A DNA stretch of 64,000 nt from Nanobdellota archaeon (GTDB taxonomy: Archaea; Nanobdellota; Nanobdellia; Pacearchaeales; GW2011-AR1): contig JBBSYO010000007.1 in assembly GCA_038045185.1 (NCBI GenBank), positions 18 to 64,017 on the forward strand, written 5' to 3'. The position numbers and the translations under genes were made by a program. This document shows positions 32,582 through 42,690 of the stretch, one piece after another. A model generated the notes under the pieces. It worked only from the letters and a program-made list of their open reading frames with translations, made no database searches and was not told the DNA's origin. The stretch's first letter is position 1, and every line of letters starts with the position of its first letter.

Positions 32582-32869
32582 AAAAATAAAGTGAGGCTTT
32601 TAGTAGTTGCATGCTAAACTCCTCGGGTTCTTGGAGATTACACACCAACTCTATCAACGTGATCTTTTATCACGGCCTTTGTTGACTCGTCTTGCGGATC
32701 GCTTCGTGCTTAGATGCTTTCAGCACTTATCGATACATGGCGTAGCTGCGCGGCCTGCTATATTAACAACCGCCCACCAGAGGCCACCGAGTATCGTTCC
32801 TCTCGTACTAGATACTCGTTCCACTCAGTCAACCACGCACCTAGTAGATATCAAACAAACTGTCTCGCG

Positions 32870-33302
32870 TATATTGCTCAACGATTATTTCTTTTCGTTG
32901 TATGGACTATACCTTCAACTTAAATTCTTGCGAATTTAAGTGATCGACGTCTTAGCAGGGTAATCCTGCTCTAAGATTTCTCGAACTTGACGGGTTCTAT
33001 TCCCTTTCAGGAAAATCTTAAGTCTCTACGGGGATCACTTTCGTGATCTTCCCTCGGGGTTACCATACTATTCGTTTCAATAGTAAGACTTCACCGATAT
33101 GAGTCGATTTTATTTTTCATATCCTCGCGGATATGCAACGCCGCTATTTTTGATACAGAAAACAAACGTAAATTTTGTTTGTTCTTCTGTCTCACCAAGT
33201 CTTTGACTTGGAGATAGTTGCGACACTCACAGAATATAATTCCGTGGTGACTCCAGCTTTGATAAGCTGAAGTTTTGGTACAGGATTCGTTGCTTATTGT
33301 TT
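32870..33302 (-). mobile_element. ORF-less group-I-like intron in 23S (E. coli ~2590-2600 region, the I-CreI target region)
   Basis: The exon sequence TGTCTCGCG | ACGTTCTTAACCC is split by about 433 nt. The sense strand has GNRA-capped hairpins (ACUUAAAUUC-GCAA-GAAUUUAAGU, GAUCAC-GAAA-GUGAUC). It also has the J8/7-P7-like GAAGGUAUAGUCC (32904-32917). Confidence 0.7.
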
Positions 33303-33989
33303 ACGTTCTTAACCCAGCTAACGATCCCTTTTAATGCGTGAACTCCGACACCCTTGGTGGCTTATGCACCACCAGGATAGGAAGAGCCGACAGCGATGTA
33401 CCAAACCGCGCCGTCAATATGGACTATCGGGCGCGACAAGCCTGTTATCCTTGAAGTACCTTTTCTGTCACACACGAGCCCTATTAAAAAGCTACGTGGG
33501 GTCGCTAAGCCCGACTTTCATCTCTGCATCTCGTGCTGTTTGAGATACAGTCAGACAAGCTTTTGCCTTCGCACTCAACTCCAGATTTCCAACCTGGATG
33601 AGCTTGTCATTAGGCCCTACCGATATCTTTTCGGCAGGGTGCCGCCCCAGCCAAACTGCCCGCCTGCTGGTGTCCCCCGTGAGGGGTGAGCAGTGCCGAG
33701 AAAAATGAGGAGTGTTACAGGGGCGCTCCGCTCACGCCGAAGCATGAGCATCGATGCTCCTCCCTACGCTATGCATTTCTCTTGACACCACAACAACAAG
33801 TTGCAGTAAAGGTTTACAAGGTCTTCGCTTCCCACTAGGCGACACCGGCATTTTCACCGGTAAGTGGGTTCAGAAGGTTCTGGCTCGGGACAGTGACCAC
33901 CTCGTTGAACCATTCATGCACGTCGCCATTCAGACGACAAGGCATTACGCTCAATTTGATGTTACACCGTCTTAGTTAAAGAATTAAAA

Positions 33990-34163
33990 TTATTGCTTGA
34001 AGCTTTTTGTGATTCCAACAATTCCAATAACAATGATTGCTATTGCAATTATCCACGCCAAAGGCCCTTGAGTTACATCACCCAATGCTTGTATTCCAAG
34101 CAATGGTAGCAACAAAAGAATTCCTATAAGCGTTGTTAGAATCGCGTATATTTTGCTTTGCAT
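33990..34163 (-). CDS. 57-aa two-TM peptide inside the 23S insertion
   Basis: ORF below the track cutoff: MQSKIYAILTTLIGILLLLPLLGIQALGDVTQGPLAWIIAIAIIVIGIVGITKSFKQ. Confidence 0.4.
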   Translation of the reverse strand: MQSKIYAILTTLIGILLLLPLLGIQALGDVTQGPLAWIIAIAIIVIGIVGITKSFKQ

Positions 34164-34260
34164 AATTCATAAAGAATTGTTTTCTTTTTAAATCTTTGGA
34201 AAACGGTTCTTGACTTTTGTCAAGTCATTATATCGCTATAATGTTCGGACTGTATCTTCA

Positions 34261-34509
34261 TTAATAATTATGCCCAAAAACAATCTTTTCAAGATACAAT
34301 TCTTGTTTCTGAACATCGTATCTAAAAACGATTCTTAACTTTTCTATCCTGATTCTGCAAAATTTATTCAAATTGAAGTGCAGATGTTTATATCTATCAG
34401 GATTTTCAGCAACTTCCTCAAATTTCTTCTTGATTCTATCTTGGAAATTTTTATCCAATTTTCTAAAGTCTTTTTCAAACTCTTTAGTTGGAAGAATTTT
34501 ATAATTCAT
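34261..34509 (-). CDS. RelE/ParE-family toxin inside the 23S insertion
   Basis: 82 aa from the internal ATG. YKILPTKEFEKDFRKLDKNFQDRIKKKFEEVAENPDRYKHL...FCRIRIEKLRIVFRYDVQKQELYLEKIVFGHNY matches the RelE/ParE pattern. It overlaps the upstream ORF. Confidence 0.75.
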   Translation of the reverse strand: MNYKILPTKEFEKDFRKLDKNFQDRIKKKFEEVAENPDRYKHLHFNLNKFCRIRIEKLRIVFRYDVQKQELYLEKIVFGHNY

Positions 34510-34675
34510 CCCAGTTTGCAAAGTCTCTATTTTTGATTTGCTCTTCGGATATCTTTAACGATTCCATGAACTCTTTATTGTTGGAAAGTTCAATGGATTC
34601 CATTATCAAGTCTAACTCTTCTTTTAACTTCATCAGTTCGATAAAAGCCTTTCTATCAATTGTTATTGTTTCCAT
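34499..34675 (-). CDS. Antitoxin-like 58-aa protein coupled to RelE
   Basis: ORF below the track cutoff: METITIDRKAFIELMKLKEELDLIMESIELSNNKEFMESLKISEEQIKNRDFANWDEL. Its stop overlaps the RelE start region by 11 nt. Confidence 0.55.
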   Translation of the reverse strand: METITIDRKAFIELMKLKEELDLIMESIELSNNKEFMESLKISEEQIKNRDFANWDEL

Positions 34676-40133: not shown

Positions 40134-40246
40134 TCTAATACATTCTATTAATCAATGAAATATATAAATCTTTCTCTTAACAGCGAATTGTTATTTCTAA
40201 CAATTACCTTATGTCTCCATAAGGATCGGACTATATCTTCACTAAT

Positions 40247-40615
40247 TTAATAAATTAGCTTCTGGCATGTAGTCTCTGAGGGTTCTAGAATCAATTGGCA
40301 AGTTTTTCTAAAGGAATTACCATCATATTCTAATGTTCTTCTTAAGGACACCGGTACTAATCTCTCATATTCAGGTATTAATCTCTCTAAAGCATCTCTT
40401 GCTCCATCTATAACATATGGGGTATAGGCTCCCTTTTTCCTTGAACTTTGAAATAACTCATCAAGCACGGGAATGGTCTGTCCAGCCAATTCTTCATCTC
40501 TCTGATTTATAGCGTTCATCAATGAGCGCCACCTTTTAAGCATAGAATTATGTGCTCGTACTATCTTCACAATTCTATTATCCGTATAAATTCTTATCAT
40601 ACGAATAACATTCAA
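40247..40615 (-). CDS. Hypothetical 122-aa protein in the endonuclease position of insertion B
   Basis: ORF on the rRNA sense strand. Its stop lies 5 nt before the J8/7-like motif. No nuclease motif was recognised. Confidence 0.45.
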   Translation of the reverse strand: MNVIRMIRIYTDNRIVKIVRAHNSMLKRWRSLMNAINQRDEELAGQTIPVLDELFQSSRKKGAYTPYVIDGARDALERLIPEYERLVPVSLRRTLEYDGNSFRKTCQLILEPSETTCQKLIY

Positions 40616-40790
40616 TAAGCCAATATATAAATATTTCTATTCGTTACCTTTTTAAAGTAACACTAATTTTCTAGCCTTCCCTGCGGATTTTCTCTATTCT
40701 TTGGATTTTTAGTAATCATTAATCTCTCGCGAAATTAACTTCCTACCAAAGACTTAACGAGACGTTCCCGCAAATAGCCAAATTTTTTTC

Positions 40791-41219
40791 TTAACGTTCT
40801 TGCTCTAATTCTTTTAAGAGTTCCTTAGGCGTCTTTACTCTATCTGGAATTATTGACTTCAGTATTTTATCTCCAGAAAAGATATTGCAATTAAACTTTA
40901 AAGCCAGAGCAAGATAAGGAACATCTTTTTCGTGTCCTTTCAAAATCATCCTTGCTTCTTCGACTTTATCCTGAAAAATGTTCTCTTGGATAAACTTTAT
41001 CTGTCTCTCTATAAAAATAAGAGCTTTCTCAGCTTCTTTCAGCGTATAGCTTGTTCTTTGAGCTATCTCCGAAGTATATTTACCCAACTCTATATAAAGA
41101 AACTCTGGAGCAATAAATTCGTATTTCTTCTTTTGCGCATTTAGCTTAAATATATTTGAAGAATTACCTATGCCAAGTATTGCTGAGAAAATAACGTTAA
41201 TATCCACAACTAAGAACAT
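40791..41219 (-). CDS. PIN-domain (VapC-like) nuclease inside 16S insertion B
   Basis: 142 aa. The N-terminal MFLVVDINVIFSAIL and the C-terminal DVPYLALALKFNCNIFSGDKIL are typical of PIN toxins. Confidence 0.75.
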   Translation of the reverse strand: MFLVVDINVIFSAILGIGNSSNIFKLNAQKKKYEFIAPEFLYIELGKYTSEIAQRTSYTLKEAEKALIFIERQIKFIQENIFQDKVEEARMILKGHEKDVPYLALALKFNCNIFSGDKILKSIIPDRVKTPKELLKELEQER

Positions 41220-41220
41220 C

Positions 41221-41460
41221 TTAAAGATTGTATTTCTTTTTGTGATGTTCCCACATTGCCGTATTAATTTTATCGCTTAATTCCTCTACATCTTTTTCAG
41301 TCGCTTTAGATTTTGAGACAATTCTCTCAAATTCTTCAATTTCCTCTAGCTCTTGAAGACTCTTTTTAATAGCATTTGCTATTAAAATAGACAATCCTAC
41401 CTTGAGCATATTTGCTCTTTGCTCTAACTCATCTGGAATTTCTATCTCTATCTTTTTCAT
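41221..41460 (-). CDS. Antitoxin-like 79-aa helical protein coupled to the PIN gene
   Basis: Its stop is 1 nt from the PIN ATG. The sequence is acidic and helical (IEIEIPDELEQRANMLKVGLSILIANAIKKSLQELEEIEEFERI). Confidence 0.5.
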   Translation of the reverse strand: MKKIEIEIPDELEQRANMLKVGLSILIANAIKKSLQELEEIEEFERIVSKSKATEKDVEELSDKINTAMWEHHKKKYNL

Positions 41461-42690
41461 ATAATTCCCAAAAGTTCTAACTTAATAAACTCTTCGTTGA
41501 GCAGAACGTTAATTGTGCGGCAATATAATTCACCGCACGCGTCACCCGTTGTAGTACTCCCCCGCCAATTCCTTTAAGTTTCGGTCTTGCGACTATACTT
41601 CCCAGGTAGCACACTCTCCGGCTTCCCTACAGCACTGAGACCTCTCGAAGAGGCCCCAATGTTCAGTGTGCAGTGTTTACTGCTAGGACTACATGGGTAT
41701 CTAATCCACTTTGCGCCCCTAGCCTTCATCCCTCACCGTCGGATCCGTGCTCGTAACGTGCCTTCGCGGTTGTTAGTCCGTACAGGATCAACCCATTTTA
41801 CCGGTACTCTGTACGTACTCGTTACGCCTCCCGGTCCCTAGCTCTGCAGTATCTCCCGCTCGTCGACCCTTGAGAGGCCGGATTTCACAGGAGACTTACG
41901 AAGCTGGCTACGGATGTTTTAGACCCAACAAATGTGGTTGCGACTTGGACTGCGGGGATTACCGCGGCGGCTGGCACCCGTCTCTCCCAGTCCTTATTCT
42001 TACGCCTTTTTACAGCGCAAAAAAGTTGTTCAAAATACTGAGCAACACGTTGGCTTACTCTGTCACGCTTGCGCGCATTGCAGAAGTTTCCCGACTGCTG
42101 CACCCCGTAGGGCTGGGAGTAGTGTCTCAGACTCCCTCTCAGGGTTTCCTCGCTAAAGGCCCTTATGGATCATCGGCTTGGTGGGCTATTACCCCGCCAA
42201 CTACCTAATCCACCGCAGCCCCATCCTCACAACATCGTTCAGCGATTCCACATTCCAGTAGGTATCGCCTATCGGTGCTTAGCCTCAGTTTCCCGAGGGT
42301 ATCACCGGCGTGAGGGCAGGTTAGCTACGTGTTACTGAGCAGTACGCCTTCTTTCGAAAGACTTGCATGTCTAAGTGTAAACCAACGAGCCGCAACCGCC
42401 AGCAGGATAAACTGGATTTAGAATATGATTATCATATCTAGGAAACATCGTTTCTAACGCGATGGAGATTTCACGGAAGAGTCCGCTAATCTACTATCCT
42501 GAACACACAACCTCCAATATTGATTGTTAAAAGATGTGATGAGTATTGACGGTCACAGAAAAATATTACAACGTAGTATTATGCATACATCATACCCAAG
42601 CATACGTCCGTCGACAAAAACGTCGCGCAACGCTTAACTAAGGCACTCATCACGATTAACATCTTAGGTAAGTTTTTTGTGCTCGGATAG

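Follow-up and report, generated by a model that had tools for sequence, protein, structure and literature searches.

Organization of the rRNA operon

The window analysed here is a stretch of 64,000 nucleotides (nt) of contig JBBSYO010000007.1 (assembly GCA_038045185.1) from a groundwater DPANN archaeon of the Nanobdellota, whose genome assembly comprises 0.91 Mb in 84 contigs and is 83% complete; the contig itself is 65 kb long. On its minus strand the window carries a ribosomal RNA (rRNA) operon with a 16S gene, a transfer RNA (tRNA) gene in the spacer and a 23S gene, and in this 83%-complete assembly there is one small-subunit (SSU) and one large-subunit (LSU) locus. It is highly probable that this single operon contains five introns of the mobile ribozyme type, four of group I and one group II-like, and that they are spliced, as predicted from their cores and junctions. 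The features are listed below with window positions; intron sites follow E. coli numbering, and L denotes a 23S position.

32580..42418, minus strand: rRNA operon (Rfam archaeal SSU, tRNA-Ala(UGC) and archaeal LSU)
42418..38537, minus strand: 16S rRNA gene (Rfam, blastn and strand reading)
41532..42418, minus strand: 16S exon 1, 887 nt (Rfam SSU_rRNA_archaea; blastn to relatives G003, G004, G001 and G010)
39997..41531, minus strand: I1, predicted group I intron at 16S 955/956, 1535 nt (Rfam Intron_gpI)
39570..39996, minus strand: 16S exon 2, 427 nt (junction sequences)
38657..39569, minus strand: I2, predicted group II-like intron after 16S 1400, 913 nt; starts with G, ends with AAU
38537..38656, minus strand: 16S exon 3, 120 nt, ends GGAUCACCUCC
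38251..38321, minus strand: tRNA-Ala(UGC) in the spacer (ARAGORN; Rfam 61.7 bits)
37809..32580, minus strand: 23S rRNA gene (Rfam LSU_rRNA_archaea, blastn)
35934..37809, minus strand: 23S exon 1, 1876 nt (Rfam LSU_rRNA_archaea, blastn)
35268..35933, minus strand: I3a, predicted group I intron at L1923, 666 nt; follows U, ends with G
35260..35267, minus strand: 23S exon 2, micro-exon CTTAAGGT, 8 nt, E. coli 1924-1931
33952..35259, minus strand: I3b, predicted group I intron at L1931, 1308 nt; follows U, ends with G
33303..33951, minus strand: 23S exon 3, 649 nt (junction sequences)
32870..33302, minus strand: I4, predicted group I intron at L2593, 433 nt, no open reading frame (ORF); follows U2593, ends with A
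32580..32869, minus strand: 23S exon 4, 290 nt (Rfam, blastn)
42571..42588, no strand assigned: 16S processing stem, upstream arm, 18 nt, 100% complementary to 38479-38496
38479..38496, no strand assigned: 16S processing stem, downstream arm, pairs with 42571-42588
37959..37986, no strand assigned: 23S processing stem, upstream arm, 28 nt, 100% complementary to 32554-32581
32554..32581, no strand assigned: 23S processing stem, downstream arm, pairs with 37959-37986

The exon breaks were set by blastn against rRNA loci fetched from 30 related genomes, combined with the junction sequences; the intron-poor relatives used were G003, G004, G001 and G010, which belong to the same genus or family. 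The exons sum to 1434 nt for 16S and 2823 nt for 23S, and the five introns to 4855 nt, or 53% of the combined spans of the two genes. The G+C content is 32-39% in the introns versus 47-54% in the exons. A sequence-only reading of the window had proposed four insertions of ∼4.9 kb in all and exons of ∼1.4 and ∼2.8 kb. The exon sizes and the total agree with our values, and three of the inserts were found as described: ∼0.9 kb near 16S 1390-1400 (913 nt after 1400, 39569..38657, by blastn against the intron-poor relatives), ∼1.5 kb near 16S 955-965 (1535 nt after ∼955, 41531..39997) and ∼0.43 kb near 23S 2590-2600 (433 nt after 2593, 33302..32870). The ∼2 kb placed near 23S 1915-1931 are also present (1982 nt); however, they are not a single insert but introns of 666 and 1308 nt around an 8-nt micro-exon, and because of this tandem pair the count is five rather than four. 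The perfect 18-bp and 28-bp helices seen around each gene were recovered as inverted repeats with 100% complementarity. The precursor is presumably transcribed as one RNA, in which these helices would bracket both rRNAs for processing. The Rfam SSU model spans 42418..39523 only, because its last 90 positions are forced onto intron sequence; the true 16S 3′ end, GGAUCACCUCC, lies at 38547..38537. A search at Rfam gathering thresholds of window positions 30000-45000 revealed no 5S rRNA gene linked to the operon.

Comparison with relatives supports the view that the inserts are introns rather than native segments of the rRNA, since a 16S gene of the same genus, 97% identical, lacks them, and since they occupy classical intron sites. 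The 16S gene of G003 (same genus) is uninterrupted, measures 1436 nt and is 97% identical in the 16S exons; blastn showed uninterrupted 16S genes also in G001, G004 and G010, so both 16S introns are missing from these four genomes. Intron I3a is absent from G003, G004 and G010 (blastn and junctions), and in G010 all three 23S sites are free of introns. In G010 the micro-exon is part of a contiguous exon, ...ACCCT CTTAAGGT AGCGTAATG..., and in G003 the 8 nt CTTAAGGT directly continue the upstream exon. A twintron reading of the 2-kb 23S insert was ruled out, since in the intron-less relatives the 8 nt that separate the cores belong to the exon. The intron reading rests further on the content of the inserts: four carry group I cores, one has a group II-like core, and one encodes a LAGLIDADG protein. 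The places that are hit are helix 69 (H69), the decoding centre and the peptidyl-transferase loop. The sequence-only reading had interpreted the inserts as introns, and it was borne out by their absence in close relatives, the classical sites, the ribozyme cores and the LAGLIDADG gene; native expansion segments, which it had named as an outcome that would refute it, are contradicted by the insert-free 16S of the same genus.

The operon is not an assembly chimera, the other such outcome. Groundwater DNA runs of four studies, one of which may be the source of the assembly, contain 0.83-0.96 of the sampled window words, and contigs of runs X1 and X4 span the junctions: they carry 66-74 nt of exon across the 5′ junctions of I1 and I2, one contig covers the whole of I4, and another runs through the complete I3a/micro-exon/I3b block into 28-29 nt of exon at either end. 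The same metagenomes hold a variant allele in which the L1923 intron is present and the L1931 intron is absent (33951/33952), and intron-less 16S-956 alleles that are deeper than the intron-bearing form.

Two groundwater metatranscriptomes (X15 and X16; contigs of 66-172 nt) showed deep cover of the exons and no depth at all inside I1, I2 and I3a/I3b. One RNA contig joins 39996 to 41532, the form from which I1 is removed. The same joined form occurs at higher depth in both DNA runs, and hence this joint is attributed to intron-less relatives. In the RNA contigs that link 33951 with 35934, the 8 letters between these positions are one base off the micro-exon of the strain, so that these contigs too come from relatives. 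No joint was found for I2 or I4 among the 66-172-nt RNA contigs of X15 and X16.

Ribozyme cores and predicted splice sites

The cores of I1, I3a and I3b were examined by covariance search and by helix complementarity. Rfam Intron_gpI (RF00028) matched I1 with 50.1 bits at 40369..40207 (cut-off 50). Whole I3a gave no group I match in Rfam at E≤1; its 3′ half searched alone gave 32.1 bits (E 3.8e-7), with Intron_gpI the sole family matched. I3b is homologous (blastn) to an ORF-less intron of ∼310 nt at the same site in G003 and G004, and the G003 ortholog scored 52.9 bits with Intron_gpI. A check with the group I model had been suggested by the sequence-only reading; it succeeded for I1, for the 3′ half of I3a and, below threshold, for I4, and failed for I2, which is group II-like rather than group I. 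Weak Rfam matches to sR5 and DUF805 RNA were dismissed as sub-threshold.

The splice sites of the three introns are of the group I kind. The 5′ exon of I1 ends in U and I1 itself in G; all three end in ...AUG or ...UUG before the exon, so that the terminal G (omega-G) is present. The P1 pairings contain the U.G pair (I1, GUGCGGU/GCCGCAC; I3a, GAGGCU/GGCCUC; I3b, CUUAAGGU/GCCUUACG, with one mismatch), and the guide-sequence G that pairs with the exon U sits 10-17 nt into each intron. P3, P7, P8 and P9 are fully complementary in all three, as are P1, P9.1 in I1 and P1 in I3a. The P element reads UUGCGGGAA or UAUGCUGGAA, the Q element AAUCCGCAGG or AAUCAGCAGG, the R element CCUCAGAGACU..., and the S elements GAUAUAGUCC, GAUAAAGUCC and GAUACAGUCC. 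Among the paralogous introns compensatory differences were found in P4 (GCGG/CCGC versus GCUG/CAGC) and in P7 (GACUA/UAGUC, GACUUU/AAAGUC and GACUG/CAGUC). In its core, I1 is similar to the IB4-like introns in the 23S gene of this genome, and a 718-nt homolog of I1 is present at the same 16S site in G131, which belongs to another genus. Since their last base is a G, I1, I3a and I3b should excise by guanosine-initiated two-step transesterification, with ligation of the exons. In such a reaction the last U of the 5′ exon would pair with the G of the internal guide in P1, and within the P3-P9 core the conserved R and S elements would form P7.

Intron I4 departs from this pattern at its 3′ end. 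It matched Intron_gpI with 25.2 bits (E 0.002), below the cut-off, and it has a P1 with U.G (AACGU/GCGUU), a P10 (GCG/CGC) and clear R and S elements. A consensus fold of twelve ORF-less homologs comprises 45 pairs, 26 of them with compensatory changes, and G003 and G004 carry the same L2593 intron minus ∼118 nt of the P1 loop. The 3′ junction reads ...AAUAUA/CGCGAG, with an A (position 32870) as the terminal base and not the canonical G, which occupies the P7 pocket when the exons are ligated. This junction is unambiguous, for the intron-less relatives read GAACGT/CGCGAGACAG. Moving the splice sites to gain a terminal G was tried and rejected: no shift reproduces the conserved exon sequence. 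The terminal A recurs in 24 of 26 other L2593 introns examined from this archaeal family (loci L078-L104); a G is found in the remaining two and in two introns from outside the family, and the P7 halves are identical in A-ending and G-ending introns. The triplet 5′ of the guide pairs with the 3′ exon as GCG/CGC in 18 cases, as ACG/CGU in 6 and with one G.U, with zero mismatches, counts that come from related sequences and are not independent events. It is most likely that I4 still splices, by a variant second step, because the core and the P10 pairing have been kept by compensatory change; since P10 appears to be under selection, it can be argued that alignment of the 3′ exon for ligation is still performed by the ribozyme.

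Most of the A-ending L2593 introns (loci L078-L104) also have an extra 5′ segment within their first ∼45 nt, a stretch of which could pair, as an extended P1, with the part of the 5′ exon that lies 9-22 nt before the splice site (UCGUUAGCU/AGCUAACGA). The two G-ending introns from outside the family are without it. A 20-nt piece of the I4 core, ATGGTAACCCCGAGGGAAGA (sense; 33047-33066), recurs with 95% identity at 32495-32514, ∼40 nt beyond the 23S processing stem, and this copy may be the remnant of another intron copy.

For I2, no group I signature was found. Its resemblance to group II introns lies in two elements:

39036..39121, minus strand: match to Rfam group-II-D1D4-1 (RF01998), 37.4 bits, gathering score 35
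38696..38728, minus strand: domain-V-like hairpin, 13 pairs

When 400 genomes of the order were searched, homologous introns at exactly the same 16S site were found in at least eight genomes of the family, and in five of eight RF01998 matched at the same relative place with 29-35 bits. The archaeal homologs start with GAAAUAAAUGUGC... and end with ...AAAGGAAAU; the boundary of I2 is ambiguous by one G. The domain-V-like hairpin, 60-90 nt from the intron 3′ end, consists of a 9-bp lower helix, an invariant CGC triad with G.U, a 2-nt bulge, a 4-bp upper helix and a GAAAA loop. In nine sequences all 117 cells are paired, with compensatory change at 4 pairs, and neither any of 500 shuffles nor any slid register reached the observed pairing. 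A covarying domain-VI-like hairpin follows, and then the 3′ end AAU, which fits the group II AY consensus; the domain-VI-like region has A-rich unpaired bases 7-11 nt from the 3′ end and no clear single bulged A. Searches of Pfam, PHROGs and NCBIfam revealed no reverse transcriptase or maturase in I2, only a 75-amino acid (aa) ORF that matched no family.

A degenerate domain-V pattern recovered 90 stretches from a collection of species-representative genomes, and in 75 of the 80 loci examined (L107-L186) the 16S sequence 1401-1407, G(C/U)CCGUC, follows the motif within 30-40 nt. By their titles the records are archaeal (Woese-, Pace- and Nanoarchaeota) or bacterial (Kaiser-, Nomura-, Azam- and Saccharibacteria, and Paceibacterota). 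Locus L164, titled Gammaproteobacteria, also carries the motif and appears to be an archaeal contig placed in the wrong bin. By blastn, the similarity of the window's I2 to the archaeal members extends over the 5′ 250 nt; with most bacterial members it is confined to domain V. These alignments suggest that one 16S-1400 intron family is common to DPANN archaea and to bacteria of the candidate phyla radiation (CPR). These two radiations of ultra-small cells, which belong to different domains, often co-occur in groundwater, and the distribution points to cross-domain transfer.

Several points weigh against the assignment of the five inserts to spliced ribozyme introns of the types given. Excision and exon ligation in this organism are deduced from sequence. 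The canonical second splicing step depends on a terminal G, which I4 does not have, and I3b gave no Rfam group I match in the window at E≤1, which is explained by the ORFs that split its core. The 5′ end of I2 is not the group II consensus GUGYG, no match to Rfam Intron_gpII (RF00029, domains V-VI) was obtained at E≤1, and the ORF-less members of its family, at 389-434 nt, are very small for a group II ribozyme; these three misfits with the textbook group II intron are why I2 is classed as group II-like. The subtype labels (IB4, IA3) rest on the published pattern of sites and subtypes, and positions 955/956, 1400, 1923, 1931 and 2593 on a hand alignment that agrees with published site lists.

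The terminal A, common to I4 and to 24 of 26 further family members examined, is what most favours a different fate for some inserts, above all that at L2593: they might be cut out with no exon ligation, leaving a mature 23S rRNA fragmented like that of bacteria with intervening sequences. The RNA runs, in which no contig joins 33303 to 32869, are uninformative on this point with contigs of 66-172 nt. We consider such fragmentation improbable, for a break at 2593/2594 would fall in the peptidyl-transferase centre, the L2593 ribozyme core has been kept by compensatory changes, and P10, which aligns the 3′ exon for ligation, covaries with the exon polymorphism. In Coxiella, self-splicing is reported, in the title of a paper (Raghavan et al. 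2007, J Bacteriol 189:6572), for a group I intron of the 23S gene in which the canonical omegaG is missing.

Removal by tRNA-splicing endonuclease and ligase, with the ribozyme-like cores as relics, would make the inserts archaeal bulge-helix-bulge introns, which are the classical rRNA introns of archaea and can carry LAGLIDADG genes (PMC6125680, PMC4496867). However, neither drawing by hand nor co-folding of the junctions of 15 homologs yielded a 3-4-3 bulge-helix-bulge for I2 or I4, the splice sites of I1, I3a and I3b bear the group I hallmarks of U.G in P1 and a terminal G, and the cores show compensatory change (domain V of I2, and I4), so that this explanation is very unlikely. We give next to no credence to the inserts being lineage-specific expansion segments kept in the mature rRNA, or to the operon being a dead copy: the insertion points lie within H69, the decoding centre and the peptidyl-transferase loop, the inserts are absent from close relatives, exon sequence is intact and matches that of G003 at 95-98% identity, and the genome, in an assembly that is only 83% complete, shows no second rRNA locus. 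Spliced introns therefore remain the preferred explanation. The locus is an extreme case of a known phenomenon, with five introns of three types.

Cargo of the introns

The introns are large because of secondary insertions in peripheral places: between P2 and P3, in L6 and L8, in the 3′ tails and in domain IV. The inserted material comprises two toxin pairs (one PIN, one ParE-type), four small ORFs of no known family and two antisense tRNA-like elements. Together with the LAGLIDADG gene, the elements are:

41221..41460, minus strand: 79-aa ORF in I1 between P2 and P3, putative antitoxin by its position only
40791..41219, minus strand: PIN-domain protein, VapC-like toxin, 142 aa, in I1 between P2 and P3 (Pfam PIN_2, E 3.8e-22)
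40247..40615, minus strand: 122-aa ORF in the P6 loop of I1, no family match
40063..40133, plus strand (antisense): tRNA-like cloverleaf in the 3′ tail of I1 (Rfam tRNA, 47.9 bits)
39147..39282, plus strand (antisense): second tRNA-like element, in I2 before the D1-D4 match (partial Rfam tRNA, 25 bits)
38758..38985, minus strand: 75-aa ORF at the domain IV place of I2, no family match
35310..35840, minus strand: single-domain LAGLIDADG homing endonuclease, 176 aa, in the P6 loop of I3a (LAGLIDADG_1, E 2.4e-19)
34752..35027, minus strand: 91-aa ORF in the P6 loop of I3b, no family match
34499..34675, minus strand: 58-aa ORF in the P8 loop of I3b, putative antitoxin (sub-threshold DUF2683 only)
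34261..34521, minus strand: ParE/RelE-type toxin, 86 aa, in the P8 loop of I3b (Pfam ParE_toxin, E 2.3e-8)
33990..34163, minus strand: 57-aa hydrophobic ORF in the 3′ tail of I3b, weak matches only

The LAGLIDADG ORF of I3a runs on into the intron core, and its product would promote homing of the intron into alleles that lack it. For the ORFs of 122, 91, 79, 75, 58 and 57 aa, no credible match came from Pfam, PHROGs or NCBIfam. Both toxin genes have the layout of type II toxin-antitoxin systems: the 79-aa ORF ends 1 nt upstream of the PIN gene, and the 58-aa ORF overlaps the ParE-type toxin gene by 23 nt. From this arrangement, the two pairs can be regarded as putative toxin-antitoxin modules.

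One related-loci search with the PIN protein gave no relatives; a search of 401 genomes of the order did, with homologs in 119 of them, the best (50-58% at the aa level) outside introns. The closest homologs of the PIN pair are neighbours of rRNA operons, one (L059, G154:C35) ∼90 nt downstream of the 23S 3′ end and the other (L060, G148:C118) ∼1.4 kb upstream of the 16S 5′ end. Homologs of the ParE-type toxin (63-80% at the aa level) are present in ∼20 of 300 genomes of the family and are mostly free-standing. In G156, from another genus, an L1931 intron (L199, G156:C35, 648-1787) has the same ParE-type pair in its P8 loop, with the conserved partner preceding the toxin, and a different ORF, of 78 aa, in P6.

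Surveys report that such rRNA introns carry essentially only homing endonucleases (PMC6125680, PMC11270868); in CPR rRNA inserts these make up 90-99% of the annotated ORFs (PMC11270868). The sequence-only reading had called the cargo unusual, and the two toxin-antitoxin pairs, set against the homing endonucleases of these surveys, justify the word. A search of the full-text literature returned no paper on toxin-antitoxin pairs inside rRNA introns. We put forward only tentatively, as a possibility less probable than its opposite, that the rRNA introns of this family serve as carriers of toxin-antitoxin modules that replace homing endonucleases. The ParE-type pair would then travel in the P8 loop of the L1931 intron, in two genera, as an addiction module that penalises cells losing the intron, and with it this allele of their sole rRNA operon, and in parallel a family-wide L2593 lineage would ligate its exons with A in place of G.

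Some of the cargo varies within the metagenomes. A variant that lacks 38743..39019, the segment of I2 with the 75-aa ORF, was found in run X4, and variants that lack 34750..35062, the segment of I3b with the 91-aa ORF, in runs X16 and X1.

The two tRNA-like elements are copies that share a 104-nt direct repeat of 85% identity. That of I1 has the anticodon loop CUCUCAA, and ARAGORN makes no call on it; that of I2 is interrupted by ∼65 nt. Both have a CUC anticodon loop and an A/T-rich, TATA-like stretch upstream. A counterpart, also antisense, lies in the G131 intron at S956, again in the 3′ tail (L047:858-929, minus strand; Rfam tRNA, 50.5 bits), and locus L173 has a tRNA-like element in its 16S-1400 intron. 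Elsewhere in the 83%-complete genome, ARAGORN found tRNA-Glu(UUC) and no tRNA-Glu(CUC).

Comparison with known rRNA introns

That DPANN archaea and CPR bacteria can have introns in their rRNA genes is already known, and this locus shows how far the phenomenon goes. Since the introns interrupt H69, the decoding centre and the peptidyl-transferase loop of the only operon, five ribozyme reactions must all succeed for ribosomes to be made. Three aspects point beyond the published surveys: toxin-antitoxin cargo in introns, with one pair recurring in another genus; a 16S-1400 group II-like family that spans two domains; and an L2593 group I lineage without the terminal G that has every sign of selection for splicing. 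In practice, such introns break 16S primers and rRNA annotation for DPANN and CPR groups.

The nearest described systems are the group I introns at LSU/1923 and LSU/1931 (IB4-type) and LSU/2593 (IA3-type) reported by Nawrocki, Jones & Eddy 2018, mostly from Woese-, Pace- and Micrarchaeota (PMC6125680). Their Table 1 includes KP308720, with introns at 1923 and 1931, 8 nt apart. Our locus has in common with these introns the host group, the three 23S sites, the layout with an 8-nt micro-exon, LAGLIDADG_1 and several introns per operon (PMC6125680). In contrast, the only 16S site of that study is 1498, and here the sites are 955/956 and 1400; the Pfam matches of its 39 introns are all LAGLIDADG, whereas PIN and ParE pairs and antisense tRNA-like elements are found here; and a missing terminal G at L2593 is unmentioned there, whereas I4 ends in A (PMC6125680).

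For I2 the counterpart is bacterial. Tsurumaki et al. 2024 described group II-like inserts of CPR bacteria only at 16S position 1400 (16IS9), with no reverse transcriptase (PMC11270868). I2 shares with 16IS9 the site, the match to an Rfam group II model and the absence of a reverse transcriptase (PMC11270868), and the same domain-V-like motif 30-40 nt before 16S 1401. It differs from the inserts of Tsurumaki et al. 2024 and Brown et al. 2015 in its archaeal host and in that mostly only domain V is shared; and in place of a LAGLIDADG gene it holds the 75-aa ORF and an antisense tRNA-like insert. The site of I1 recalls eukaryotes, because 16S 956 is a classical nuclear intron site in myxomycetes, algae and fungi, e.g., Dir.S956-1 (PMC3679873). 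As in those introns, the same universally conserved 16S/18S stretch is interrupted and extra genes lie in peripheral loops (PMC3679873); unlike them, I1 sits one base earlier (955/956, by hand alignment), has an IB4-like core and not an IC1 or IE core, and carries no endonuclease gene.

A tandem arrangement like that of I3a and I3b is also said to exist in the 23S gene of Coxiella burnetii (Raghavan et al. 2007). Its two group I introns, at sites 1917 and 1951, reportedly flank a very short exon. The two systems would have in common a reduced genome, a single rRNA operon, tandem 23S introns around a short exon and one intron without the terminal G. They differ in that the host here is an archaeon, and in that the missing G belongs to the L2593 intron and is common to most of an archaeal family, whereas in Coxiella it is a single bacterial case.

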